Positions 8,717-33,287 are shown, counted from the first letter of the stretch. The stretch is DNA of 36,146 nucleotides from Bacteroidota bacterium (GCA_041192505.1 JBEEMV010000185.1:1-36146); one strand, 5' to 3'. The notes: generated by a model from the sequence alone, not told the origin. A program made the numbers and translations.

Positions 8717-9397
8717 TTATTGTTTCATGATTTTTTTAAAATAAATTTCTCCATTTATTTCTTCTATTTTTAAAAAGTAAATAGCCGCTGGTAAATCAGC
8801 CATTAACAATCGGATATTATTGTTGAAGTACTGAATTGCAACCTCCAATTTTTGCCCATTACTATTTAATACTTCTACTGATTTAAATACATTATTATAG
8901 GGTTGAAGTACTAATTCATTTGTAGTAGGGTTTGGATAAATGATTGATAATTTACTTGCATCAACAGTATTTATAGAGGTAGAATTTACTATCAAAATAT
9001 AAGATAATGTATCTTTTAGCATCTTGTTGGCTGTATCATTTACAGCATAAGTTAAAACTGCAATTCCATTATTAACTTTTGCTTCAATTGCAATATCTAA
9101 ATTGGCTATACCATTTGGCACAATAGCAGTCATAATAGCTGAAGCCGCAGATGAAGGATAGCTTGCATAATTATCATTGATATAAAATGCCCAATTTGGT
9201 GGCAATGCTTTACTTATTAATGTCCATTGTAAAGCAATATTATTAGTAGAAATATTTTTCAAATTAATGTTTAAATATTCGATTGAATCCAGTTTGCCTT
9301 TTCTTACAATTGAATCGTTAGGCAAATGAATAAAACTTAGTTGTGCTTGGCAAACTAAACTTGTGATTACCAAACAGAATGAAAAAAATAATTTCAT
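8717..9397 (-). CDS. Small T9SS type A sorting domain protein
   Basis: Signal peptide; C-terminal IYPNPT...NSNGQ...LPAAIYFLKI...KKIMKQ. Confidence 0.85.
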   Translation of the reverse strand: MKLFFSFCLVITSLVCQAQLSFIHLPNDSIVRKGKLDSIEYLNINLKNISTNNIALQWTLISKALPPNWAFYINDNYASYPSSAASAIMTAIVPNGIANLDIAIEAKVNNGIAVLTYAVNDTANKMLKDTLSYILIVNSTSINTVDASKLSIIYPNPTTNELVLQPYNNVFKSVEVLNSNGQKLEVAIQYFNNNIRLLMADLPAAIYFLKIEEINGEIYFKKIMKQ

Positions 9398-11646: not shown

Positions 11647-12243
11647 TTATTCCTTCACAAATTTCCCATTCATCACATTGCCGTTTGTATCAGTAGCTTT
11701 AATAAAATAAATACCACTTGGTAATGCTGAAACATCTATAGAGATGCTTCGTTCCTCAGCATGGCTAACTATCGAACTGCCGTCATGGTTAGCTTGTCGA
11801 ACCATTTGTGTTCTACCCAACACATCCGTGATTTGTATTGTATTATCTAATAACTGATAACCAGTAACTAATAACTTCTCTCCACATGGATTCGGATAAA
11901 TACTAAAATGATTATCGGTTGTTAAATTATTTTCAATGCCATTTAGCAATGGATTTTTTATATTGATAGTAAACCCTGCATTTTTAATAATATGCCCTTG
12001 ATAATCTTTACCGATAATGTGGCAGTAAGAACAAACATCGCCAAATTCTGTACTGATTTGCAAACACAAATTATAGGTTGTATCAACAGTATACATATGC
12101 GTTGGTGTGGCTGATGTTGAGGTAGAACCATCACCAAAATTCCATAAATAACTATTAGCCTGTTGTGAAGTAATAGAATCAATGGTTACTATAAATGTAT
12201 TATTTAAGGTATCATAATTAGTATTGAAATGGGCAATACAATT
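11647..12243. repeat. High-identity DNA repeat (copy 1) shared with 16099-16695: PKD and T9SS CTD coding region
   Basis: Colinear at an offset of 4452 bp; for example 11767-11827 is identical to 16219-16279. Confidence 0.9.
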
Positions 12244-15200
12244 TTGGTAATAGTAAAGACAATCTGATGTATCAATGCAATTGCCTTTTGTTACAATTAC
12301 TGCATAAATACCTGTAGTTGATGGAACGAAATTTTTGTTTGTAGCATTCGGAATTGGGGCATTCAAATTTATACAATCAATCCATTGATAGTTTGCTAAA
12401 GAACTTGTTTCATCAGATTCTAATGCTATTCCATTTTGAGTAATTCCATTATCAATACTATCTACATTTAAATATAGAATATTCAAAGAATCGCAACCAA
12501 ATTTAGATATAAATGAGTCGATATAAATACCACCCAAACTTAAATTCATATTCTTAAAGTAATAGCTTGAGCCTTTACAAATAGAAACATGTTGTGTATT
12601 GAAATAGGAGTTATTTACACTTAAGTTTAAGATTAAAATAGTATCACATGAATGAGGAGTTAGTATCGTATCATAGTACAATCCACTTGTAAATAAATTT
12701 TTGCCATTAAACTGGTAGAAAGAACCATTGCATATTGAAGCATTCATCAACTTTGTATTATAATTAAAATTCAAATTTAATTGTTCAATTGTATCACATC
12801 CTAAAGTGGTTTGAATGGTATCATAGTAGGTGCCATTTGTTGTTAGCATTTTACTATTAAAATTATAATTAATACCATGGCATGAATTGGCATTTATAAA
12901 TTTTATAGGAATGTTTTTTTTGTATACATTTAAAAAAATAATTGTATCGCAACTTGAAACACTATTTAAGGTATCAACATAAATTCCTGCAACTTTTATT
13001 GGTTTATTGTTGAATATTAAATTGTGAGAACTACAGATAGTATCATATTTATACAAATAGATGTATTGATCAACACTAAGCGCCAATTGGATAATTGTAT
13101 CACATGTATTAATACCATTTATCGTATCATAATAATAACCAGTTGTTGTTAAAATTTTACCACCAAAGTTGTATGATAATCCTTGACATATTGAGATATT
13201 CAAATTCTTACTTTCATAATACATATTTAAATTTATTGTTAAAATAGTATCACATCCATTTAATGCAATTATAGTATCAGTATAATTGCCAGGATTGCGG
13301 TATGTTTTATTATTGTAAATAAAAGATTGTCCATGACAAATGTTTTTTTGAATATTATCATAATTATATAATACATTTAAATTCAAGTATAAAATTGTAT
13401 CACAATTATTTGCAGATGAAATAGTGTGGCTGTAGGTTCCAGCATTTTTTAAATAAGTATTGTAAAATAAAAATGAATCTTTTGGACAAATAGTTTCAAA
13501 TTTGTTGATGTTAAAATTGAAATGTCTTAGTTTTAAATAAGTGATAGTGTCGCATCCAGAAGCATGCATTGTGGTATCATAAAAATCTCCACCGTTTAAA
13601 TATGTTTTACCATGGAAAATAAATGGAAAGCCACAAATATTTTTTATTAATGTATCATGATAAATAGTACTAATTTTAATAGGATGATTTATTGTAGAAA
13701 TGCAATTGTTTGATGAAATTGAAACTGTGTAAATTGTATTCACTGTTTGTGAAATTGAAACTGTATCATTATTCGAATTAAAACCAATTGGATTCGAACT
13801 CCAACTAATTGAATAATTTGAAGAGTTTATAGTTGAATTACATCCTTTAATAATTAAATCTGGTCTATTTAAAATGGTAGAGATATAACCATTTTTTGGA
13901 TAGCTATTATTAGAGGCATCTAGCAAGTTATTATCAGATTGCGAAAAATTGCAATACCCTTGACTTGGCATTGTAGTTTGTGCTACAAAATCCGAATTTG
14001 AAAAATTTATTGTTCCGTTATCGTAACAAATTTCAACCAATAAATTAGATAAGCCATCCCACTGAAATGCTTGATTTAGCATAAATGTATTATATCCAAT
14101 TGTAGAATTATAAGCTGCATTTGAATATACAATTGTTTTAGTACTTGTGGTATCAAATTTACCAAATGGTAAAGTGTTATAAAAAACAGCAGCTAACTTA
14201 ATGGTATAATTTTGATACGGTTTTATAGATGATTTATTAATTACACTCCAAGTTAGTTCAGAAATTATTCCACCATAAAACCCAGCTTGATTTAATTCGG
14301 CTTTTGTATAAATTAATTGAGTTCTTGATTCTGTATAAAGCCCATTAAAAATTGTTGGCGAATATCCTGCTGAAGTTTGAATATTGTTTCCTATCGCCAA
14401 AAAAGTGGATTGACTTGTGCAGTTATTTACTGTAGGTCCGCTATTTAAAGGTCGTGATAAGAGAATTAAGTTTGTGGAATTATTTGAACAAACAGAATCT
14501 ACTCCAACAAGCGTAATATTGGGAGCCATGCCTTTTACATAGATATTCTTGGAACCGAATGTAGGACAAAGTGTATCAAACATTGGAGGAGATGTAATTA
14601 GATTAACAATATGGTTTCCACCTTTAATAAATTTAACAATTATTGGATTGGAAGAAGTTAAACTGCCTGAAACCAAAATGGTTGATGAATCTATTTCCCA
14701 ATTATAACTTAGGGTTGAATTAATTGTGTTAAGATAAAATGTAACAGTATCAGACAATCCACATACTGAATCTTTTGATGCATAAATGGTAGTTGATTGT
14801 GCTTGATTCCGATTAATACTAATCAATTGCATCGTGGTATCATAAAGACAATTATTATAATTTGCAATTAGCTTTATCGTATATGTTCCAAGGGTACTAT
14901 AGTAATGTGTAGGGTTTTTAATGGTGTCAGTATTTGGATTATTTAAAGTTGAATTTGGATCACCAAAATCCCAAAACCAATGATTTATGTTTGCCCCTGG
15001 TAAATTTGAAAATGAATTATCTGAAAAATGAACTTTTGAATTTGTGCAATAAGTAGTAGGAGAAAAACAACCACTTTGAACTTGAGCATTTGATTGATAA
15101 GATGTTGTTAAAGTGTCGTTACATCCCCAATTATTTAATGGTTGAGTGATACAATTCACCTGTAAATTTCCACTAGGTGTGTTCGGAATTGTTAGGTTTT

Positions 15201-16038
15201 GGGAATTGCCAAGTATGTTTACATAGCCCGAATCATACCAATTATAAGAATAGAATCCTACCGGTGCTGAAAATATAGTTGGTCCATTTATTTGAGAGCA
15301 ATTGTAACTTTGTATTAATGTTCCGTTACAATTATTTGGAAAATCTAAATAGGCATATCCAAAGTGGCCACCATAAGCACAATCCCCTGATTCAAAATTT
15401 AAGTAAATTGTTTTACCTGCAAACCCTTTAATATTAATTTTTGAAGCCAGCCATGATGTACACATGGTTGATGAATTTCCAAAGAATGTACCTAATAGGA
15501 ATTGGGTAGAATTTATAGCTGATATTGAAAAATTTGAGCAAGAGGGAATAATACTATTTGTTATTGAATCTATTATTTTTACCCGAAAACTAGATTGTCC
15601 ATCTACAGTATGTGACCCATCTTGTAATACTAATGCGTAGTAAAAAATTAAATCATAATCATTGTTGTTGGCAGGAATTGTTAATTTGTATTTTAATTGA
15701 GCAGCAACCATAGATATGTTGTCATCACCTAATCTGATTGAACTTAGATTGTTCGGTATTAAAGGGCACACCATTGGTATTCCACTATATGGATCCAATC
15801 CTCCACTAACTAAATAGTGTTGTATGGGGGATATTCCTGTAGGAATTAATGGGAAATTTAATATAGTTGGATTACTCTGTACTGTTCCTTGAGAAACATT
15901 TCCTACATTACATTCCCAATTCGCTAAATTGCCGTTTTCAAATCCAATATTGGGTGGGCAATAGGTTTGCGCTTTTGCAGTAGTTAAAAATAATGGCAAT
16001 AAAGTGCATAGTAAAAATGATAAGGTTAGTTTTTTCAT
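11647..16038 (-). CDS. Large T9SS-secreted PKD-domain protein with 8 Cys-containing ~50-aa repeats (probable adhesin)
   Basis: Signal peptide; DC..GGHFGYAYLD N-terminal domain; PKD motifs WDFGDP and WNFGDG; 8 IC.G...YDT....GCDT repeats; CTD IYPNP...SGIYFIK...KFVKE. Confidence 0.88.
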   Translation of the reverse strand: MKKLTLSFLLCTLLPLFLTTAKAQTYCPPNIGFENGNLANWECNVGNVSQGTVQSNPTILNFPLIPTGISPIQHYLVSGGLDPYSGIPMVCPLIPNNLSSIRLGDDNISMVAAQLKYKLTIPANNNDYDLIFYYALVLQDGSHTVDGQSSFRVKIIDSITNSIIPSCSNFSISAINSTQFLLGTFFGNSSTMCTSWLASKINIKGFAGKTIYLNFESGDCAYGGHFGYAYLDFPNNCNGTLIQSYNCSQINGPTIFSAPVGFYSYNWYDSGYVNILGNSQNLTIPNTPSGNLQVNCITQPLNNWGCNDTLTTSYQSNAQVQSGCFSPTTYCTNSKVHFSDNSFSNLPGANINHWFWDFGDPNSTLNNPNTDTIKNPTHYYSTLGTYTIKLIANYNNCLYDTTMQLISINRNQAQSTTIYASKDSVCGLSDTVTFYLNTINSTLSYNWEIDSSTILVSGSLTSSNPIIVKFIKGGNHIVNLITSPPMFDTLCPTFGSKNIYVKGMAPNITLVGVDSVCSNNSTNLILLSRPLNSGPTVNNCTSQSTFLAIGNNIQTSAGYSPTIFNGLYTESRTQLIYTKAELNQAGFYGGIISELTWSVINKSSIKPYQNYTIKLAAVFYNTLPFGKFDTTSTKTIVYSNAAYNSTIGYNTFMLNQAFQWDGLSNLLVEICYDNGTINFSNSDFVAQTTMPSQGYCNFSQSDNNLLDASNNSYPKNGYISTILNRPDLIIKGCNSTINSSNYSISWSSNPIGFNSNNDTVSISQTVNTIYTVSISSNNCISTINHPIKISTIYHDTLIKNICGFPFIFHGKTYLNGGDFYDTTMHASGCDTITYLKLRHFNFNINKFETICPKDSFLFYNTYLKNAGTYSHTISSANNCDTILYLNLNVLYNYDNIQKNICHGQSFIYNNKTYRNPGNYTDTIIALNGCDTILTINLNMYYESKNLNISICQGLSYNFGGKILTTTGYYYDTINGINTCDTIIQLALSVDQYIYLYKYDTICSSHNLIFNNKPIKVAGIYVDTLNSVSSCDTIIFLNVYKKNIPIKFINANSCHGINYNFNSKMLTTNGTYYDTIQTTLGCDTIEQLNLNFNYNTKLMNASICNGSFYQFNGKNLFTSGLYYDTILTPHSCDTILILNLSVNNSYFNTQHVSICKGSSYYFKNMNLSLGGIYIDSFISKFGCDSLNILYLNVDSIDNGITQNGIALESDETSSLANYQWIDCINLNAPIPNATNKNFVPSTTGIYAVIVTKGNCIDTSDCLYYYQNCIAHFNTNYDTLNNTFIVTIDSITSQQANSYLWNFGDGSTSTSATPTHMYTVDTTYNLCLQISTEFGDVCSYCHIIGKDYQGHIIKNAGFTINIKNPLLNGIENNLTTDNHFSIYPNPCGEKLLVTGYQLLDNTIQITDVLGRTQMVRQANHDGSSIVSHAEERSISIDVSALPSGIYFIKATDTNGNVMNGKFVKE
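11741..11805. repeat. In-frame REP-doublet-like palindromic insert, copy 1
   Basis: CGTCATGGTTAGCTTGTCGAACCAT (11781-11805) is 24/25 identical to the GIY-YIG-flanking repeat. It faces a related arm GAGATGCTTCGTTCCTCAGCATGGC (11741-11765). Confidence 0.85.
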
Positions 16039-16098: not shown

Positions 16099-16695
16099 CT
16101 ATTCCTTCACAAATTTCCCATTCATCACATTCCCATTTACATCAGTAGCTTTTATAAAATAAATACCACTTGGTAATGCCGAAACATCAATAGAGATGCT
16201 TCCTTCCTCAGCATGACCAACTATCGAACTGCCGTCATGGTTAGCTTGTCGAACCATTTGTGTTCTACCCAACACATCCATAATTTGTATTGTATTATCT
16301 AATAACTGATAACCAGTAACTAATAACTTCTCTCCACATGGATTAGGATAAATACTAAAATGATTATCATCCATTAAACTATTGCCTATACCATTTAGTA
16401 ATGGATTTTTAATATTTATAGTAAAGCCTGCATTTTTAATAATATGCCCTTGATAATCTTTACCGATAATATGGCAATAGTTACAAGTATCGCCAATAGC
16501 AGTAACTATTTGTAGGCAAACATTATACGTTGTATCAACAGTATACACATGTGTTGGTGTGGCTGATGTTGAAGTAGAACCATCACCAAAATTCCATAAA
16601 TAGCTTGTGGCTTGTTGGGCTGTAATGGTATCAAGGGTTACTATAAATGTATTATTTAAAGTGTCGTAATTAACAGAGTAATTAGCTATGCAATT
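16099..16695. repeat. High-identity DNA repeat (copy 2)
   Basis: Colinear with 11647-12243. Confidence 0.9.
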
Positions 16696-19600
16696 TGTAT
16701 TAAAAACAAAACAAGCAGATGTATCAGAACACATTCCATCTGAAATTATAACGGCATACGAACCAGAATTGAATGGCGTAAAAAAGTTTTGATTAAATTG
16801 GGTTAGAATATTTGATGGAGTATTACAATCTATCCATTCATAATAAAAAATATTAGGCGATGTATTAACAGCATATAATGTATTGCCATTTTTTATAACA
16901 GTAGTTGGCGCAAAATACGGTGTAAGTATTAAAGTATCAATGGTTGTACAACTTCCAGTATGAATTGTATCAATATAAATACCTGGACTATTGTATACTT
17001 TATTTGAATAATAATATGGAGTTCCGTTACAAATTAAACCATTATGTGTTGAGGTAGTTGGTAAATAAATATAACTAAGTGATGCAATTGTATCACAGCC
17101 ATTGGTTGTAGATGGAATTGTATCGAAATAATAACCTGTTGTTGATATCCAATTGCCATAGAAAAAATATGGAGCACAATCAGTTACAGTTATATATTTT
17201 GAAAAATTAGTAAATAATAAATTTAAAATTAACATTGTATCACAACCAACACTTGTATGAATGGTATCATAATAAACCCCAGTTGCAGTATAAGTTTTAC
17301 CATTGAAGGTATAAACTGAACCCATACATAATGATTGATTTATTTGTACATTAAAAAGTGATGCAATTTTTACAACATGGTTTTTACTAAACATACATCC
17401 ATTATCATTAGCAGTAACTGTATAGGTAGTATTTGCTGATGGACTAACAACAATATTTTGATTTGTTGATGAAAATCCTGATGGATTTGATGACCAATTA
17501 AAAGTAGTATTAGTTGGAAATACATTCAAGTTACAACTTTTAAAAGTTATATCAGGTCTATCATTAGCATTAAAAGTAAATGTAGCAGGGTAAATAACAT
17601 TACCATCGTATAATACATCGCAGCCGTCTAAAGGGTCATTATCCGAAAAAGCATAAACACATTTAATATTCCCAACCCCCAAGTTTGATTTTTTAACATT
17701 ATCAGCTTGTGTGTAATTAGTTGTTCCGTTGTCAAAACAAACCTCTACTAACAAATTTGAAGTACCATCCCAAGAATAATTGGCAATATTGAATGGAAAA
17801 CTATTTACACCAACAATAGTACTATATGCATTATTTGAATAAACTATAGTTTTAGAAATTGAAGTATCAAATGTGGCTGGTAAATTAAAATCAGAATAAG
17901 AAATACAAGCCAATTTAATATTAAAATTTTGAAATGGAGCAGTGCTTCCTTTTGAAGTAATGTCAAATGCAATTTCCGAAATTTGACCGCCATAAAATCC
18001 AGCAGCATTTAATTCGGCAGCAGTATAAATCATCTGCATTTTTTGCTCGGTATAAAATCCATAAAATGGTGTAGGCAAACCAGCAGTTGTTGAACTATTT
18101 GTACCAATTGTTGAAATATTGGTTGAAGAATTACAGGGAACTATTGCAGCGCCACAATTATTAGCCGTATTATTAACAGAAAGCGTTGTTGTATTATTGG
18201 GGCAGATAGAATCAACGCCCATAATAGATATAAATGGAATAATTGCTTTCACATAAACCTGCGTTATAGCAGTAGTAGTGCAATTTGTATCTGTAGGTGG
18301 TGGTGTGGCAACAAACTGAATAGTATGATTGCCTGTTGTTTTATATTTTAATACAATAGGTTGATGAGCATTTAAATTGCCCGATACTACTATTGCATTT
18401 GGGTCTATTATCCATTGATAAGTATAGCCTACAATTGCTGAGCTTATAGGATATATAGTAGTGGTATCGCCTAATCCACAAATAGAATCTTTTGTAAATT
18501 TAATGATAGAAATAGGGGCAACTCTATTAATATTAATGGTTTGGCAAATGGTATCGGCTAAGCAATTAATATTGGAATGAGCAATTAAACAAACTGTATA
18601 ATTTCCCATTGCCGAATAAATATGAGTTGGATTTTCTGTGCTATCTGTATTCGGGTTATTTGATGTAGCATTAATATCACCAAAATTCCAAGCCCATTCA
18701 TTAATATATGCGCCTGTAATTGTTGTAAATGAGTTATCAATAAAATGAGTAGCGCTATTTACACAATAAGATGTTGGATAATTAAAATTGGCTACTGCCA
18801 CTGGATTTGGATTGTATTTAATAGCAACCGTATCCATGCATCCCCAATTATTTAATGGCGTAAGTACACAATAATGTAATGAAGTATCAATGGGCGAAGT
18901 GGGAATAAAAAATGTATCACTAGTACTCAATAAATTAGTAAAGCTAGAATCGTACCATTGATAAGCACTATAGCCACCAGGAGCAATTAATTGTGGTAAA
19001 TTAGCTGAGGAACAAGTTGAACCTTGAGTAAATGAATTACCATTACAATTATTTGGTAAATCAACATAAGCATACCCAAAATGACCAGCATAAGCACAAT
19101 CGAAAGCATCAAATTGTAGATAAATAGTTTTCCCTGCTAAGCCCGAAAAATCAAGTGTTGAGGCAGTCCAACCTTTATAATAAATGGAATCCCAAGAAGG
19201 CGAAATAGGTGAAACTAAAAATCCATTTAACATGCCGCTTACAGGTTGAACTATATAAAAATTAGAACATAGATTAACGGGTAAGTTAGTAGCAGAATCA
19301 ATAATAGTAACACTAAAGCCAGGCTGTGCTTCAAAAGGGTGTCTTGGTTGTTGAAATACTAAAGCGTAATAAAATGTTAGCGAAAAATTATTATTGTTTG
19401 TAGGCACATTTATTTTATAATTCATTCGAGCACAAATTGCACCTATTTGCTCATCACCTAATCTAACTGAAAAATGATTGCCATTTATGTAATTACAAAC
19501 TGTAGGAAATTGTCCGAAAGTGTCTAAACCACTTGTTTTAAGAACGTGTTGAGTTATACTTGGTCCTGTTGGATTGATAGGATAGGTAAGTGTAGCAGCA

Positions 19601-19764
19601 TTACCAGTTGTGCCTGATGTTACAGCGCCTACATTGCAAATCCAATTTGTAAAACCACCATTTTCGAAATTAATATTTGGTGGGCAATAGGTTTGCGCTT
19701 TTGTAGTAGTAAAAAATGATAGCCATAAAGTACATAGTAAAAATGATAAGGTTAGTTTTTTCAT
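16099..19764 (-). CDS. Large T9SS-secreted PKD-domain protein with 3 Cys-containing repeats, paralogue of 11647-16038
   Basis: Same architecture; near-identical signal peptide and C-terminal ~200 aa. Confidence 0.88.
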   Translation of the reverse strand: MKKLTLSFLLCTLWLSFFTTTKAQTYCPPNINFENGGFTNWICNVGAVTSGTTGNAATLTYPINPTGPSITQHVLKTSGLDTFGQFPTVCNYINGNHFSVRLGDEQIGAICARMNYKINVPTNNNNFSLTFYYALVFQQPRHPFEAQPGFSVTIIDSATNLPVNLCSNFYIVQPVSGMLNGFLVSPISPSWDSIYYKGWTASTLDFSGLAGKTIYLQFDAFDCAYAGHFGYAYVDLPNNCNGNSFTQGSTCSSANLPQLIAPGGYSAYQWYDSSFTNLLSTSDTFFIPTSPIDTSLHYCVLTPLNNWGCMDTVAIKYNPNPVAVANFNYPTSYCVNSATHFIDNSFTTITGAYINEWAWNFGDINATSNNPNTDSTENPTHIYSAMGNYTVCLIAHSNINCLADTICQTININRVAPISIIKFTKDSICGLGDTTTIYPISSAIVGYTYQWIIDPNAIVVSGNLNAHQPIVLKYKTTGNHTIQFVATPPPTDTNCTTTAITQVYVKAIIPFISIMGVDSICPNNTTTLSVNNTANNCGAAIVPCNSSTNISTIGTNSSTTAGLPTPFYGFYTEQKMQMIYTAAELNAAGFYGGQISEIAFDITSKGSTAPFQNFNIKLACISYSDFNLPATFDTSISKTIVYSNNAYSTIVGVNSFPFNIANYSWDGTSNLLVEVCFDNGTTNYTQADNVKKSNLGVGNIKCVYAFSDNDPLDGCDVLYDGNVIYPATFTFNANDRPDITFKSCNLNVFPTNTTFNWSSNPSGFSSTNQNIVVSPSANTTYTVTANDNGCMFSKNHVVKIASLFNVQINQSLCMGSVYTFNGKTYTATGVYYDTIHTSVGCDTMLILNLLFTNFSKYITVTDCAPYFFYGNWISTTGYYFDTIPSTTNGCDTIASLSYIYLPTTSTHNGLICNGTPYYYSNKVYNSPGIYIDTIHTGSCTTIDTLILTPYFAPTTVIKNGNTLYAVNTSPNIFYYEWIDCNTPSNILTQFNQNFFTPFNSGSYAVIISDGMCSDTSACFVFNTNCIANYSVNYDTLNNTFIVTLDTITAQQATSYLWNFGDGSTSTSATPTHVYTVDTTYNVCLQIVTAIGDTCNYCHIIGKDYQGHIIKNAGFTINIKNPLLNGIGNSLMDDNHFSIYPNPCGEKLLVTGYQLLDNTIQIMDVLGRTQMVRQANHDGSSIVGHAEEGSISIDVSALPSGIYFIKATDVNGNVMNGKFVKE
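16193..16257. repeat. In-frame REP-doublet-like palindromic insert, copy 2
   Basis: GAGATGCTTCCTTCCTCAGCATGAC (16193-16217), a 15-bp spacer, then CGTCATGGTTAGCTTGTCGAACCAT (16233-16257); the CATGAC/GTCATG ends are complementary. Confidence 0.85.
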
Positions 19765-25417: not shown

Positions 25418-25758
25418 CGTCATGGTGAGCTTGTCGAACCATATTCAGAAATGAAAAACATGTACGTTTACATATTGCTTTGTTCCGATAACTCTTATTA
25501 CACAGGAGTTACAAACGATGTTGAGGGAAGATTTAAGGAACATCAAGATGGCTTTGTTAATGAATGTTATACTTATGCACGAAGACCTTTGCAATTAAAA
25601 TTCTATGAATTATTCAATACACCGCAAGAAGCCATTAAATTTGAAAAGCAAATAAAGAAATGGAGTAGAGCAAAGAAAGAAGCATTGATTGAAAGAAATT
25701 GGGAAAAACTCAAATTATTGTCAAAATCAAAAAATGGTTCGACAAGCTCACCATGACG
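25418..25758. mobile_element. GIY-YIG cassette bounded by a perfect 25-bp inverted repeat
   Basis: Left CGTCATGGTGAGCTTGTCGAACCAT (25418-25442) and right ATGGTTCGACAAGCTCACCATGACG (25734-25758) are exact reverse complements. Confidence 0.75.
25451..25756 (+). CDS. Small GIY-YIG nuclease family protein (UPF0213/YhbQ-like)
   Basis: YVYILLCSDNSYYTGVTND...R..EH..G....YT..RRP......E.....AIKFEKQIKKWSRAKKEALI. ATG 25451 is chosen because the upstream ORF extension is translated repeat (RHGELVEP). Confidence 0.93.
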   Translation: MKNMYVYILLCSDNSYYTGVTNDVEGRFKEHQDGFVNECYTYARRPLQLKFYELFNTPQEAIKFEKQIKKWSRAKKEALIERNWEKLKLLSKSKNGSTSSP

Positions 25759-27285: not shown

Positions 27286-30282
27286 TTACCGCTCTACACT
27301 CCATTTTTTCGAAATAACATTTCCATTCTCTGTCATACATTTTACTAAATAAATACCAGCAGCAAAGCTTAAAGTATTGATTGTTGTGGTATTTGAAGTA
27401 ATATTATTTTTAACGAAAATTAATTGCCCTTGCATGTTATACAATTCAATGTTTTTCAAATTTCTATTCGAAATCCATTTAACAATTAGTTGCGATGCAT
27501 CATTATCATGTGTAATAATTAAGTTTTCATTTTCATCTATTTTACGCTCTATGCCCGATGCTGTGGTAATGATTACTGTATCTAAAAATATGGCTGCACA
27601 ATTTCCATTTTGAGCCGTAAGTGTGATGGTAAACATTCCATTTTTTGTATAGTTATGAATGGGGTGCTGAACTGTACTTTGTGTGCCATCGCCAAACGAC
27701 CAATTATACGAAGTAGCGCCAGAGCTTTGATTGGTAAAGGTTACGGCAGTGCCTATTTTTGCAAAAATAAATTTAGCAGTAGGCAATGGGTTTACATTAA
27801 TAATATTAGCAGCTGATGAAACACAATTATTATCACTCACATTTAAGGTTACATTTTTTGAACCAGGTAAACTCCAATTAATTTGATAAGGGCCAGCGCC
27901 ATTGCCCGATGCTATGTTGCCGCCGCCAAATGTCCAAGTATAAATAGCCGTACCCGATGTAGTACCTGAGTAAGCAATGATAGAATTATAACCCACACAA
28001 ATATTGCTTACATAAGAAAAGTTAGCATTGGGTGTTTGCGTTATCGTTAACGAATCTAAATAAGTACGAGTGCCTAAAGTATTGCTAACAGTAAGGCTTA
28101 CAAAGTGCTTACCTGCTTTTGAATAGGCTATAGTAGGATTTTGATTTGGCGATGATGGTTGGCTGGCAAAGCCATCAAAATTCCATTGCCATGATGTAGG
28201 ATTGTTTTTCGAACTATCTATAAAGTGTATAGAATCGGCTGTACAAAACCCTGTAAGCGGTATTTTAAAATAGGCAATTGGCCCAAGATAAACGCAGCTT
28301 CCATCATCTATTTTAGCTAACGAATTATAATTTGTCATAGCGGCATTTGTACATCCTTGGCAGTTTAGCATTTTAAAAGCATCTAATTTGCCATAACCCC
28401 ATACATTGTTTGGTAAAGCGGTGCCTGTAAAATTATCAGTTGCTACGCAAGTGGTTAATGAAGCTTTTGCATCATTCCAATTGGCTGTTGGTCGTTTTTG
28501 AAAATATAAAGCAACTGCGCCACTAACGCATGGTGCGGCGGCCGATGTGCCTTTATGTGGCCCATGTAAAGTATCAACCGAAATTGAATTTGGGTTATTT
28601 GTTTTTGCCCAATTTAACCAATACAAATCATTGGCAGCTAATGTCCATTCGCCCGAAGCTGAAATATCTGGCTTGTTTAAACCCAATCGTGTAGGGCCTT
28701 TGCTGCTTGTTGGGTAGTGATTACCCACCGTATGAGCATCGCAATTATTTACATTACCTTGCCATGTTGTATAATTATTTCTATTCAAATAATTGCCTAC
28801 CGAAATTAATTTTGAAGAGCAATTCCAAGTACCTACAATTGTTTGTTCGGTATCGGGCATCATATAGTGTGATATGTCAGGTAATTGAGCTGTGGTAGGT
28901 AATCCTGTATACATTATGGCTGAACTTCCTGTATAATTTGGATGGCTCCATACATCAAATTTTCCTGTGCCTTTGGTCATAAACCGCCAGGTGTAATTAG
29001 TTACAGAATCTACATACACACCAAAGTACATAAAGTAATGTCCGTTTTGTTTTTCGCAATACGATTCTAAAATGCCCAATCGCTGCCCACTATTGTTTTT
29101 TATGGTATCGTATTTTGTAAATAATGTTTGCGAACTCATTTGATAATCACTCATCACATTCATCCAGTTGGTTCTGTTTCTATGATTAAATGATGGCGAA
29201 GTAACATCGGCTCCCACAGCAAAATAAGCATTATTCCAATCGGCATAATCGCTAAATAATTCGAAGTAAGCCACATATTTTCCACCACCTATTCCAAAAG
29301 AATTAAAATAAGTATATGCCGAATCGCTTGGTAGGTTATAACCTAAGTGCATATACTTTCCACCCGAATTGCCTGCCGAAGCTACAAAGGCTCTGCCGCT
29401 TTGCGCTGTTACTAAATTTTCGATGGCTTGTGTTGCTAAATCTGTAGCATCGTGTGAACCATTGTAAGTACCAAGGCTGGCATTAATTACACAAGGCTTA
29501 CCTAATGCGGCTGCTTTGGCAAAGCAATAAGCAGCGCCATCTGCTACACACGATTCAAAACTATTGCCCGTAATACCATTAAAATCTATGGCTACAAATA
29601 TTAAATCGGCATTGGGCGCAATGCCTCTATAATTGCTATGTTGCTGGCTATTGCCACAAGCCACACCGGCCGTTAATGTACCATGGCCATAAAAATTTTG
29701 TGGCGGTGTATGCGTACAGTTCCCATTATTAATAGCTGTGCTATCCCAATCTTTACCATAGCCAAATGGCGATGGATGAAGGCTTCCAGCGGTATCAATT
29801 TGGCTCCATAAATATTTTATTCTTGTATTTCCATTGGGGCGTTTAAAATCGGGGTGATGAAAATCTAAACCCGAATCTAAAAAGCCAATAATAATGCCTG
29901 TGCCATCGTAAGCCTGTGGCAATGGTGCTGTACCTGCCTGAACAGCAACTACATTGTTGTTGGTGTTGGCTTGGTCTTCCATAGTATAGCCGCTATAATA
30001 GGGGCGTTGAACGCTTTCATAAAAATCGCTTTTTAAAAAATTATCGTATTGGTTAGCAGGGATAATAATGGATGAAATATTGCCTGCATTAAATTTAAAT
30101 ATGCCGCCCATTTGTTTTACAATGGCTTTTGTTTTTTCTACATCGCCTTTTACAAATAATGAAATGTTTTTGGGCGTTGGTTTGTAACCATTAAATTGCT
30201 TGGCAAAATGAGGGTGTAATTGGGCAAACAAAAAAGTGTGGCAACACAATATGAATACAATGGAAAGAAAATGTTTTTTCAT
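27286..30282 (-). CDS. S8 subtilisin-family serine peptidase with PKD domains and T9SS CTD
   Basis: Catalytic motifs FLDSG, GHGTLTAG, SAGNSG, GTSAAAP, WGYGKLD; PKD motifs WNFDG, WTFGG, WSFGDG; CTD GIYLVK. Start at MKKHF (30282). Confidence 0.92.
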   Translation of the reverse strand: MKKHFLSIVFILCCHTFLFAQLHPHFAKQFNGYKPTPKNISLFVKGDVEKTKAIVKQMGGIFKFNAGNISSIIIPANQYDNFLKSDFYESVQRPYYSGYTMEDQANTNNNVVAVQAGTAPLPQAYDGTGIIIGFLDSGLDFHHPDFKRPNGNTRIKYLWSQIDTAGSLHPSPFGYGKDWDSTAINNGNCTHTPPQNFYGHGTLTAGVACGNSQQHSNYRGIAPNADLIFVAIDFNGITGNSFESCVADGAAYCFAKAAALGKPCVINASLGTYNGSHDATDLATQAIENLVTAQSGRAFVASAGNSGGKYMHLGYNLPSDSAYTYFNSFGIGGGKYVAYFELFSDYADWNNAYFAVGADVTSPSFNHRNRTNWMNVMSDYQMSSQTLFTKYDTIKNNSGQRLGILESYCEKQNGHYFMYFGVYVDSVTNYTWRFMTKGTGKFDVWSHPNYTGSSAIMYTGLPTTAQLPDISHYMMPDTEQTIVGTWNCSSKLISVGNYLNRNNYTTWQGNVNNCDAHTVGNHYPTSSKGPTRLGLNKPDISASGEWTLAANDLYWLNWAKTNNPNSISVDTLHGPHKGTSAAAPCVSGAVALYFQKRPTANWNDAKASLTTCVATDNFTGTALPNNVWGYGKLDAFKMLNCQGCTNAAMTNYNSLAKIDDGSCVYLGPIAYFKIPLTGFCTADSIHFIDSSKNNPTSWQWNFDGFASQPSSPNQNPTIAYSKAGKHFVSLTVSNTLGTRTYLDSLTITQTPNANFSYVSNICVGYNSIIAYSGTTSGTAIYTWTFGGGNIASGNGAGPYQINWSLPGSKNVTLNVSDNNCVSSAANIINVNPLPTAKFIFAKIGTAVTFTNQSSGATSYNWSFGDGTQSTVQHPIHNYTKNGMFTITLTAQNGNCAAIFLDTVIITTASGIERKIDENENLIITHDNDASQLIVKWISNRNLKNIELYNMQGQLIFVKNNITSNTTTINTLSFAAGIYLVKCMTENGNVISKKWSVER

Positions 30283-30515: not shown

Positions 30516-33287
30516 ATGAAAAATAAATTACATCTTTTACTATTGGTTTTAATGGTAGCATCTGCATTCTGCGGTTATTATCATGCTCAACAAAAACCAA
30601 TTATTCGTTTGCCATTTGAAGCTAATGAAACTGGCGAACGGGAAGAAGTAAAAGAATGGGAAGAAGCCATGCTTGCCGATCCTGCAACAGGCGAAATACC
30701 CGAAGGCATTACTTTTTTAGAAAGACAATTTTCGCAACAATTTTTACAACAAGCATTTGCTAAATCAAAAGGCAATAAACAATTAGAACAGTGGCAAAAT
30801 CGTGGTCCATGGAATGTTGGAGGCAGAACAAGAGCATTTGCTATTGATATTACTAATGATTCTGTTTTTTTTGCTGGTGGTGTTTCGGGTGGTTTATGGC
30901 GTAGTAAGGATAGAGGAAATAATTGGCTGAGAGTTACCGACAAACATCATAACCCCGATGTAGTAGCCATTGCACAAGATACAAGAGCAGGACATACAAA
31001 TACTTGGTATTATAGCACAGGCGAATGTTTGGGAACATCGGCAAGTGGTGGAAGTGCATTTTATTTGGGCGATGGAATTTTCAAATCAACTAATGGTGGT
31101 TTAACTTGGGATTCGCTTACAACAACCAGTACAGGCAATCCTCAAGGGCCTTATCAATCATTTCAACTTACTTATAATTTAATTACCAATCATGCCAATA
31201 AAACGCAAGATGAATTGATGTATTGTTCGCTTTACTATGGCGCTTTTAGAAGCGTTGATGGTGGTGCTACATTTACACAAGTATTAGGTTCGGGGCAAAA
31301 TTGTGGTTATGAATCGGATATTGCAGTTGATACCAATGGTGTTTATTATGCTACATCCAGCTCGGATGCAAGCTCGGTTAAAGGAATTTTTAGAAGTACC
31401 AATGGAACAACTTTTACAAATATTACACCTCCAAATTTTCATACCACTTATGGTTTAACAAAAATTGGTATCAATCCATCTAACCCAAATGAAGTTTATT
31501 TTTTAGTTGCCGAGGCTGATACATTAGGATTAAAAACTACTAATGTTTGGGGCGATATTGAATACACAGGATTATGGAAATATACTTATGTAAGTGGCAA
31601 TGGAAGCGGCGCTGGCGGTACTTGGATTAATCTTTCACAAAATTTACCACAAGGTTTATTGAATTTTGATGGCTTTCATTCGCAAGGTGGTTATAATCTT
31701 TTAGTAAAAGTTCATCCTACACTGCCCAACACTGTTTTTATTTGTGGTACAAATATTTATCGTTCAACAAATGGCTTTGCAACCAATACACAAACCAAGC
31801 AAATTGGTGGCTATGCTATCGGAACACAATTGGCTACATTTCAGGTTTATTTAAATCATCATCCCGATCAACATGATTTTTGGTTCTTGCCTTCAAACCC
31901 TTCCATAGCTTATAGTGCATGCGATGGCGGTGTTTATCAAACCAATAATTGCATGGCTTCAACAGTGGCTTGGAACAGATTAAACAATGGCTATTTAACC
32001 ACTCAATTTTATTCTGTTTTGTTGCATCCCGATTATCAAAAAGATATTATTTTAGGAGGTTTGCAAGATAATGGTGTGTATTGGAACAATTCAAGCAATC
32101 CGAAAGCTGCATGGAAAATGCCTTTCAATGGCGATGGAAGTCATTTAGATATTAGTAACGATGGCAACACTTATTACCTTTCTATTCAACAAGGAAAAAC
32201 AATTAAAGCCACTTTAGATAATACAGGCGCTATTACACAATTTGCTCGTATCGATCCAAAATTTGCCAAACGAGATGATTATCAGTTCATCAATCAATTT
32301 GTAGTAGATAAGGCAGATGATAAAATAATGTACATGCCAGCTGGTAGAAAATTATTTAGAAATGATGATTTGAATGGAATTCCGTTTGCAGGCAATCGTG
32401 ATTCTATTGCTACAAATTGGATTCAATTTCCAGATACATTAAAAGGTACAAATGAATTTACTGCCATTGCTTGTTCAAAAACAGGACACACTTTGTATGT
32501 AGGTACTAAAACGAAAAAAGTGTACAGAATAGATAATGCAAATACTGGCTTGCCAAATATGACCGACATTACAGGTTCGTTTCCTTCTGCATTTGTAAAC
32601 TGTATTGCAATTGACCCTACGGATGCAAAAAAAGTAGTGGTAGTGTTTTCAAATTATAATACCTACAGTATTTTTTATTCTGTAGATGGTGGTGATAACT
32701 GGATACGTTGTTCGGGTAATTTAGAAACATCGGTAAGTGGCTCTGGCACAGGGCCATCGGTAAGATGGATTTCGATAATGCCTTATCAAGGACACATGAA
32801 ATATTTTGCAGGCACAAGCATTGGTTTATTCAGTGCCGATTCATTAACACTACATGATGTATCAAATGCAGGCACACAATGGACAATGGAAGGTGTAAAC
32901 GAAATTGGAAACACAATTGTACCTTATATTCAAATTCGTGAAGCAGACAATATGGTGGCTGTAGCTACCCATGGTAGCGGTGTTTTCACTATTCATTATG
33001 GTTGGAATGTAGGCGTAGGCGAAATTGAAAATACAGCCAGCGATATAATTGTATATCCAAATCCATCAAATGATTTTGTAAAATTAAATTGGAATAGTAA
33101 TGTTGCAGCCGAAATAAAAATGCAATTGTTTGATATTTCGGGCAAGCAAATTTTTATAAAATCAATTCATTCATTAATGGGAAAAAATACTGAAACTATT
33201 GATGTGAAAGGTTTTACAGCAGGCACATACTTTCTAAATATGAATGATGGCAAAAATAATTTCAACAAAAAAATAATTATTCAATAA
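30516..33287 (+). CDS. BNR/Asp-box beta-propeller protein (VPS10/GH74-like) with T9SS CTD
   Basis: [10 protein letters not shown], repeated S.D/NGG.TW Asp boxes, HPDQH, GGLQDNG, ATHGSGV, VYPNPS...GTYFL...KKIIIQ. Confidence 0.88.

Follow-up and report, generated by a model that had tools for sequence, protein, structure and literature searches.

To understand how a short repeat that flanks a GIY-YIG nuclease gene comes to be read in frame inside a secretion signal, we examined a 36,146-nucleotide stretch of DNA (the window) from a Bacteroidota bacterium and compared it with the rest of its genome and with genomes of related organisms. The window corresponds to contig C185 in a draft genome, designated G000, that comprises 2.91 Mb in 298 contigs with 32.6% GC and is 87% complete. 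An earlier note on this DNA had proposed that repeat sequence was recruited as protein within a T9SS C-terminal sorting domain (CTD), where it partly replaced native residues. We therefore asked what the repeat is, how far it has spread among sorting domains and which explanation best accounts for its position there.

Two tandem genes carry a facing repeat pair in their sorting domains

The first gene concerned, ORF1 (11647..16038, minus strand), encodes a protein of 1463 aa that is identified by Pfam as a PKD-repeat protein (PKD_4 at 7.7e-21) with a type-A T9SS CTD, and that has an N-terminal signal-like sequence. The CTD (11659..11901, minus strand) was recognised with PF18962, AlphaFold and Foldseek; the Por_Secre_tail family PF18962 matches residues 1380-1460 of 1463 with an E-value of 4e-11 and 43.5 bits, compared with a cut-off of 27, and the domain contains the YPNP and G-x-Y motifs and a near-terminal lysine. 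The C-terminal end of ORF1 reads ...DVLGRTQMVRQANHDGSSIVSHAEERSISIDVSALPSGIYFIKATDTNGNVMNGKFVKE, also given as ...IYPNPCGEKLLVTGYQLLDNTIQITDVLGRTQMVRQANHDGSSIVSHAEERSISIDVSALPSGIYFIKATDTNGNVMNGKFVKE, which together with the PF18962 match bears out the peptide and its location in the CTD that had been proposed. Comparison with the DNA of empty paralogs delimits a repeat-derived segment, TQMVRQANHDGSSIVSHAEERSIS, between DVLGR and IDVS at 11740..11811 (minus strand). Within it, unit A (11782..11805, minus strand) agrees with 23 of 24 consensus positions and is read in frame 1 as MVRQANHD, and unit B (11744..11765, plus strand) agrees with 21 of 22 positions, the coding strand carrying its reverse complement, which is read as HAEERSI. 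Positions 11781-11805 match 24 of 25 letters of the core present at either end of the GIY-YIG gene (25418-25442 and 25734-25758), as had been claimed, and the facing arm at 11744-11765, previously described only as related, proves to be a second unit in its own right, one mismatch away from a 22-nt sequence with seven exact copies in the genome. The avoidance of a stop was also read correctly, since the third frame of unit A encodes GSTSSP followed by the stop codon that closes the GIY-YIG ORF.

ORF2 (16099..19764, minus strand), identified by sequence match and Pfam as a tandem paralog of ORF1, encodes 1221 aa and carries an equal insert at 16196-16257, with the CTD at 16111-16353, unit A at 16234-16257 and unit B at 16196-16217. 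The final 300 nt of the two genes are 92% identical, both including the repeat segment, and a 60-nt stretch of the doublet is found again at 16198-16257 with three mismatches, compared with no matches in 100 shuffles. Internally, both PKD proteins also contain several copies of a module, roughly 150 nt in length (window positions 12600-13450 and 17100-17300), which corresponds to the direct repeat families D3, D6 and D9 and appears in the protein as recurring ...CDTI...LN... units.

Three further CTDs in the window are repeat-free (8729..8941 and 27304..27489 on the minus strand, 33051..33281 on the plus strand). Counted by hand, the distance from the glycine of DVLG to the G-I-Y motif is 34 aa in ORF1, compared with 24 (to A-I-Y), 24 and 27 aa, respectively, in these domains, which reproduces the earlier figures. 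The reading that repeat DNA would be translated as protein within a T9SS CTD is supported at the level of sequence.

Architecture and distribution of the repeat units

Units of the A/B superfamily are about 21-24 nt long and GC-rich in a 33% GC genome. With substitution-only matching, G000 contains 39 copies of unit A (24 nt) at up to five mismatches, ten of them exact, and 22 copies of unit B (22 nt) at the same threshold, seven of them exact. These copies lie mostly outside long ORFs, and many belong to composite arrays that also include units of other kinds. A and B share an architecture of AT-NN-T, TCG, a short loop, CTC and A-N'N'-AT, followed by GAC. Of the 45 architecture matches in the genome, 32 have complementary bases at the two variable stem positions, compared with a chance rate that we estimate at 1 in 16, and these involve five different pairs (GG/CC in 13 matches, GC/GC in 12, AG/CT in 3, CC/GG in 3 and TC/GA in 1). 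Folding energies of the single units, a 71-nt doublet and an empty control were no better than those of shuffled sequences (z-scores from -0.24 to 0.72), so that it is covariation alone that argues for a stem or hairpin, and the proposal of a stable RNA or DNA hairpin was dropped. In a scan against Rfam, the sole match in the window was a tRNA; no family scored above threshold near the GIY-YIG cassette, and the units themselves were unmatched.

Four of the six reading frames through unit A are free of stop codons (A in frames 1 and 2, reversed A in frames 1 and 3). Unit B is used in two frames, encoding HAEERSI in doublets and VMLRNEAS when alone, which implies that the B-alone and doublet forms are not simple derivatives of each other. 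Facing doublets of units also occur on contigs C67, C120 and C207. Intergenic A units are found inside a longer composite element (C17:4250-4350, C207:3650-3740, C64:2660-2760, C81:880-960, C120:1680-1760 and C255:13880-13960), which consists of a conserved left flank (AACCCAnATTAAGCG.T.GRAA..GAAT), A, reversed A or a variant with an ATAGT stem, and the end GAGTCGAACCAT; it is possible that this element forms a multi-stem structure. At up to two mismatches, unit A is present in all six sister genomes of the genus, in none of four genomes of other genera in the family, and in one of the 20 genomes searched from other families, where the stem has co-varied.

Relationship of the units to GIY-YIG nuclease genes

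The GIY-YIG nuclease gene of the window (25451..25756, plus strand; PF01541 at 4.7e-19) encodes 101 aa, and its last six codons and stop codon come from unit A. Exact copies of unit A form inverted arms around it, the left arm upstream of the gene at 25419..25442 (minus strand) and the right arm at its 3' end at 25734..25757 (plus strand). Within G000, flanking A units are confined to this GIY-YIG gene, and the other small GIY-YIG genes adjoin tRNA genes. Small GIY-YIG genes directly after tRNA genes are located at C49:~400-900, C114:16560-16862 and C193:1-120; on C49, the GIY-YIG gene is followed by a second tRNA 3' end and a terminator, as if a cassette had inserted beside the tRNA with duplication.

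Homologs of the window gene (E<=1e-12) were detected in 26 of the 151 genomes of the order. Units were counted with a strict pattern (a regular expression) for the unit architecture at 30 homologous GIY-YIG loci from these genomes (L061-L065 and L102-L126). Within 200 nt of the gene, 12 of the 30 had a unit on one or both sides, including 5 with units on both. Unit density is 1.44 per kb near the GIY-YIG genes compared with 0.094 per kb elsewhere in the loci, an approximately 15-fold difference. Units at these loci are often inverted, and their stems and loops are lineage-specific, with co-varying stems. In G000, a single cassette underlies the description of the repeat as GIY-YIG-associated, and four of the six sister genomes (G001, G003, G004 and G005, the last with 22 copies) contain unit A with no homolog of the window gene at E<=1e-5. 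A fifth, G002, combines unit A with only a distant GIY-YIG match of 34% identity. The occurrence of unit A in these genomes argues against an obligatory partnership. No A or B units were found beside the four Y1_Tnp loci in G000. These Y1-transposase (RAYT/IS200-like) genes are located at C120:21370-21714, C70:126-470, C107:16156-16500 and C48:1451-1714, and three of the four have arrays of different short hairpin repeats, with no relation to A and B, on their flanks.

Repeats occupy a hypervariable segment in one CTD subfamily

PF18962 has 148 matching places in G000, and our own iterated HMM identified 154 CTD tails, 32 of which form one subfamily. In a census of these tails the pattern proved to extend well beyond a single event in one gene, with repeat-derived sequence present in 20 of the 32 subfamily members, directly after DVLGR in 19 of these 20. 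The flanks of the segment are nearly constant (...NTIEITDVLGR ... I(D/N)VS.LP.GIYFIKATD..GN.MNGKFVKE) and the sequence between them is hypervariable. Six members contain A plus reversed B, one contains A plus a G-rich repeat, four contain reversed B alone and one a long-loop variant of reversed B; the G-rich repeat is found in six (two of them assigned by peptide only), a small TCCCGA..TCGGGA hairpin alone in two, and no repeat in twelve. At least three repeat families therefore contribute to the inserts, namely the A/B superfamily, the G-rich CCCCC..GGGGG repeat and the TCCCGA..TCGGGA hairpin, and the latter two also have copies outside CTDs in G000. The small hairpin has ten copies in the genome, four of them within CTDs (C34:160-177, C82:24156-24172, C82:37388-37404 and C159:9922-9939). 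The copy in C34 occupies a different CTD loop, β2-β3, where it is read as SPESNRE, and two copies of this hairpin are nested within the G-rich repeat. Counting A at up to four and B at up to two mismatches, 18 of the 53 A/B units fall within a subfamily CTD or directly beside one, a figure that overcounts insertion events because the genes are paralogs.

The borders of the insert can be read from the DNA. Repeat-free subfamily members have DVLGR-VVFQQIKNSLTQQIQ-IDVS where the window copies have DVLGR-TQMVRQANHDGSSIVSHAEERSIS-IDVS. The empty members read GGTAGA-GTTGTATTT-CAACAAATC...ATTCAA-ATAGATGT, which encodes R-VVF-QQIKNSLTQQIQ-IDV. In the B-only form, represented by C57, GTTGTATTT is swapped for GTC ATG CTG AGG AAC GAA GCA TCT AAT and the native QQIKNSLTQQIQ is retained. 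In the window form, repeat DNA accounts for the whole sequence from the arginine codon to ATTGATGT, with none of the native 39 nt left, confirming that native residues were replaced and not merely added to. Taken with the secondary structure of two models described below, the DNA of the empty paralogs identifies the segment at 11740..11811 as a stand-in for the native β4-loop-β5 segment. ORFs of 1463, 1221, 843 and 515 aa, among others, remain open through the units.

Units are also read within genes of other kinds. A 530-aa FAD-dependent protein (PF21688) contains LVRQAHHDS (C159:730-753 and G004:C2:69694-70110), encoded by a clean 21-nt unit insertion in G000 and the sister genome G004, which are 93% identical over the matched 417 nt; the insertion is absent from the other five of seven genomes of the genus. 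ORFs would survive such insertions because the bounded unit is 21 nt long, a multiple of three, and four of its six frames are stop-free. An amidohydrolase-family protein (C230) contains VMVSLSNH, and was rejected as a bounded insertion since the flanks of its relatives are too divergent to fix the borders. A copy in C28 that encodes NGELVEPQ was likewise set aside; it has four mismatches, and the short piece searched had no Pfam match.

Relatives and recombination among sorting domains

A search of longer proteins with an 89-aa CTD query returned 72 matches, mostly from metagenome-assembled Bacteroidota, and 37 of the 72 contain repeat peptides, a share that is biased upward because the query itself bears the insert. 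Among these matches from other assemblies, 13 belong to the class with A plus B, 5 to A plus the G-rich repeat, 6 to B alone, 3 to a long B-like form, 1 to reversed A alone (VMVSLSNH) and 9 to the G-rich repeat, and 35 have no insert. A 1206-aa protein from another assembly (P0040) aligns with ORF2 from end to end with 62% identity (761/1227) and a 9-aa gap at the insert. Its CTD is repeat-free and matches the translated CTD of a sister-genome locus (L076, G004:C7), and P0040 is apparently the ortholog of ORF2 in a sister species. Similarly, a leucine-rich-repeat protein encoded on C285 (P0003), which carries an insert, is 60% identical (561/930) to an empty paralog encoded on C145 (P0031); the N-terminal halves of their CTDs are almost identical and a 9-aa gap again coincides with the insert. 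Full-length relatives that lack the peptide thus show a gap in its place, and the case that would have spoken against the earlier note's reading, the same peptide in homologous CTDs of genomes without the repeat family, was not encountered. Judged from these alignments, the insert is the derived state, absent as it is from the full-length relatives. The centre of the CTD differs en bloc between ORF2 and P0040, suggesting that it was replaced through recombination.

The subfamily is mosaic. Each type of N-terminal CTD half (CGEKLLVTGY.., (A/V)SQSIVISHQSL.. or V(S/N)NVLIC..) is combined with two to four insert states, and every insert state is in turn found with at least two types of N-terminal half, an arrangement that requires either recurrent insertion or recombination. 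In addition, orphan CTD halves that start or end exactly at a repeat unit are present in G000 at C44:7008-7175, C213:4348-4509 and C189:~16521-16769 (near 16611); two of them are 3' halves that lack a gene body, and the third, a 5' half, continues into unrelated DNA. As these half-domains are bounded by the repeat, breaks evidently occur at repeats. The DNA that flanks the inserts in CTDs is 80-86% identical, while unit A within CTDs differs from its consensus by 0-2 mismatches.

DNA contigs assembled from independent runs span the A unit together with its flanks, and other assemblies carry the insert, which argues against a chimeric assembly. One DNA contig that skips 11763-11815, with five other letters between, was considered as an empty allele and rejected, since it matches the CTD form with reversed B only, has just 26 letters on one side and is probably derived from a paralog. 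Three contigs from one RNA-library run align to 11994-12665 with 95-99% identity; they cover the gene body outside the insert and may be DNA-derived.

Predicted structure of the insert-bearing tag

AlphaFold models were built with an input alignment of 60 CTDs from G000. With the insert, the CTD is predicted to fold as a seven-strand sandwich (pLDDT 84.5, pTM 0.75), in which β4 comprises residues 39-44 (TQMVRQ), a 13-residue loop residues 45-57, and β5 residues 58-64 (ERSISID). Confidence in the model is lowest for the repeat-coded loop, the two 10-residue blocks that cover residues 41-60 having a mean pLDDT of 69 and 61. The model of an empty paralog (pLDDT 87.9) has β4 at 38-43 (VVFQQI), a six-residue loop at 44-49 and β5 at 50-54 (QIQID). 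The repeat arms are therefore predicted to supply strand residues, with only the middle forming an extra loop, a strand assignment that the alignment may bias. The top Foldseek match is the CTD of mirolase (8qb1_A, TM 0.71-0.74), followed by 8glk_D and 5m11, all with E-values above 0.001. Positions P11, N12, P13, G37, G71 and K88 are conserved in at least 90% of the 60 CTDs and Y73 is invariant. The secretion machinery is itself encoded in G000, as evidenced by SprA_N (1e-155, in a 2432-aa frame) and PorV (1.4e-65).

Passages of Lauber et al. (2024; PMC10994853) describe the conserved motifs of type-A CTDs as setting the fold and not the contacts with the translocon, and the binding pocket as plastic. 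They also describe two bound conformers of a single CTD that differ in the β4-β5 loop, with no effect on PorV binding. On the strength of these passages (Lauber et al. 2024; PMC10994853), tolerance of altered sequence at the β4-β5 site is plausible, and the range of inserts in the subfamily suggests that this part of the tag may tolerate foreign sequence.

Explanations for the inserts

In our preferred reading, selfish short repeats were probably tolerated in the β4-β5 hairpin of the sorting tag, which they now encode, and were spread and re-assorted by recombination among paralogous CTDs. Very short repeats would first have entered the DNA for the β4-loop-β5 hairpin in one subfamily of type-A CTDs. 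In the window genes, a facing pair consisting of A and then reversed B has put 24 repeat-coded residues in place of the native 15. The CTD of T9SS substrates is cleaved off after export. Such inserts most likely persist because the tag serves for sorting and is afterwards removed, because its conserved motifs set the fold and because the β4-β5 region is plastic. Insert variants may then have spread and been re-assorted through recombination among the near-identical 3' ends that encode these CTDs, and breaks at the repeats would have left the orphan halves. The sequences themselves establish the identity of the repeat, its in-frame reading, its absence from full-length relatives, the variety of insert types at a single site and the mosaic of CTD halves. 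Tolerance with no loss of secretion, recombination as the route of spreading and the mechanism of insertion are what we infer here.

That three unrelated repeat families share a single short site exceeds what simple tolerance would predict, and fits a preference for a landing site equally well. Under this alternative, which we consider a live though unlikely rival, the machinery that moves the units would favour the conserved DNA that directly follows the DVLGR codons, or some structure formed in it, making the segment a true hot spot. At least three families that are unrelated in sequence occupy one interval of about 45 nt, where A and B are found in both orientations and in two frames, and all A/B copies detected inside CTDs belong to this subfamily; these counts are, however, inflated by copying and recombination among paralogs. 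The clean insertion outside CTDs, in the FAD-dependent gene on C159, has no evident motif in common with the CTD site, and neither site has a target duplication, as far as a comparison of these two sites by eye can tell. A small hairpin has moreover entered another CTD loop, in C34. A broader proposal, that A/B units and small GIY-YIG genes form a nuclease-repeat partnership paralleling that of REP and RAYT, with units of about 21 nt inserting in multiples of three and the β4-β5 segment acting as a preferred landing or breakage site through which the halves of sorting tags are shuffled among dozens of genes for secreted proteins, is likewise unlikely in our view.

Alternatively, the inserts might be of use to the cell, as recombination joints for tag halves, as hairpins at the 3' end that affect mRNA or translation, or as variation in the tag for the choice of carrier. 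Indirectly in keeping with such a use are the mosaic CTDs, the orphan halves that end exactly at repeats, the recurrence of insert-bearing CTDs in several assemblies and the close match of unit A to its consensus within CTDs compared with the identity of the flanks. However, predicted hairpins are no more stable than those of shuffled sequences, 12 of the 32 subfamily members and the full-length relatives manage with no insert, and we regard adaptive use as very unlikely. That the inserts mark decayed genes or chimeric junctions is also very unlikely: incompleteness, fragmentation into 298 contigs, CTDs at the ends of contigs C197, C229 and C234 and the orphan halves would lend themselves to pseudogenes or misassembly in a metagenome-derived genome, but ORFs of 1463, 1221 and 843 aa are open through the insert, ORF2 can be aligned over its full length with an intact relative, contigs of the gene body occur in one RNA library and the same junctions recur both in independently assembled runs and in further assemblies, so that the pseudogene alternative raised in the earlier note is disfavoured.

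Comparison with known systems

In the open-access literature searched, we found no description of repeats in T9SS CTDs, of repeats flanking GIY-YIG genes or of the wider implications drawn below. The CTD of ORF1 resembles other type-A CTDs (PF18962) in position and motifs and in a predicted seven-strand fold that matches solved CTDs, and differs from them in that β4, β5 and the loop between them would be repeat-coded, with a modelled loop of 13 residues compared with six in the empty paralog. Its subfamily amounts to a series of natural mutants of the T9SS sorting signal, in which the β4-β5 segment is native or is occupied by one unit, a doublet or a G-rich repeat and the remainder hardly varies. 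Provided that the tags are still functional, such a series shows which part of the CTD the translocon ignores, in agreement with the plastic pocket seen by cryo-EM.

REP and REPIN sequences are short imperfect palindromes that occur in tens of copies together with RAYT (Y1 transposase) genes, and REPs are extragenic by definition. The A/B units are comparable in being short, putative imperfect palindromes present in tens of copies, some of them in facing doublets, and in the presence of a small nuclease gene with inverted flanking copies. In contrast to REP/REPIN-RAYT systems, the gene flanked by unit A encodes a GIY-YIG protein and not a Y1 transposase, and the A/B units appear, from the open frames, to be translated. 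A GIY-YIG gene, rather than one for a Y1 transposase, is thus a candidate partner for a REP-like repeat family.

MITE-like elements such as ERIC and BOX are described in passages of PMC10969869 as small and non-autonomous, sometimes forming in-frame fusions with host ORFs. Unlike the A/B units, intragenic elements of this kind are longer and have terminal inverted repeats, and those passages (PMC10969869) mention no concentration in secretion signals. The same passages describe Rickettsia palindromic elements (RPEs) as interspersed repeats that lie between and inside genes, are in frame and translated, and are absent from orthologs, with 44 insertions in R. conorii (PMC10969869). The A/B units are likewise found between genes and in frame within ORFs, and are absent from the same position in orthologs or paralogs. 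In contrast, an RPE is about 150 bp long and RPEs enter many unrelated genes, whereas the units described here are 21-24 nt long, a roughly six-fold difference in size, and the doublet of the window is 65 nt. In further contrast to RPEs, the A/B units cluster in a single loop belonging to a single domain family, at a site that several repeat families share, and their host is a free-living freshwater member of the Bacteroidota. The colonisation of genes in frame by selfish repeats would thereby be extended from endosymbionts of the Rickettsia type to a free-living member of the Bacteroidota.
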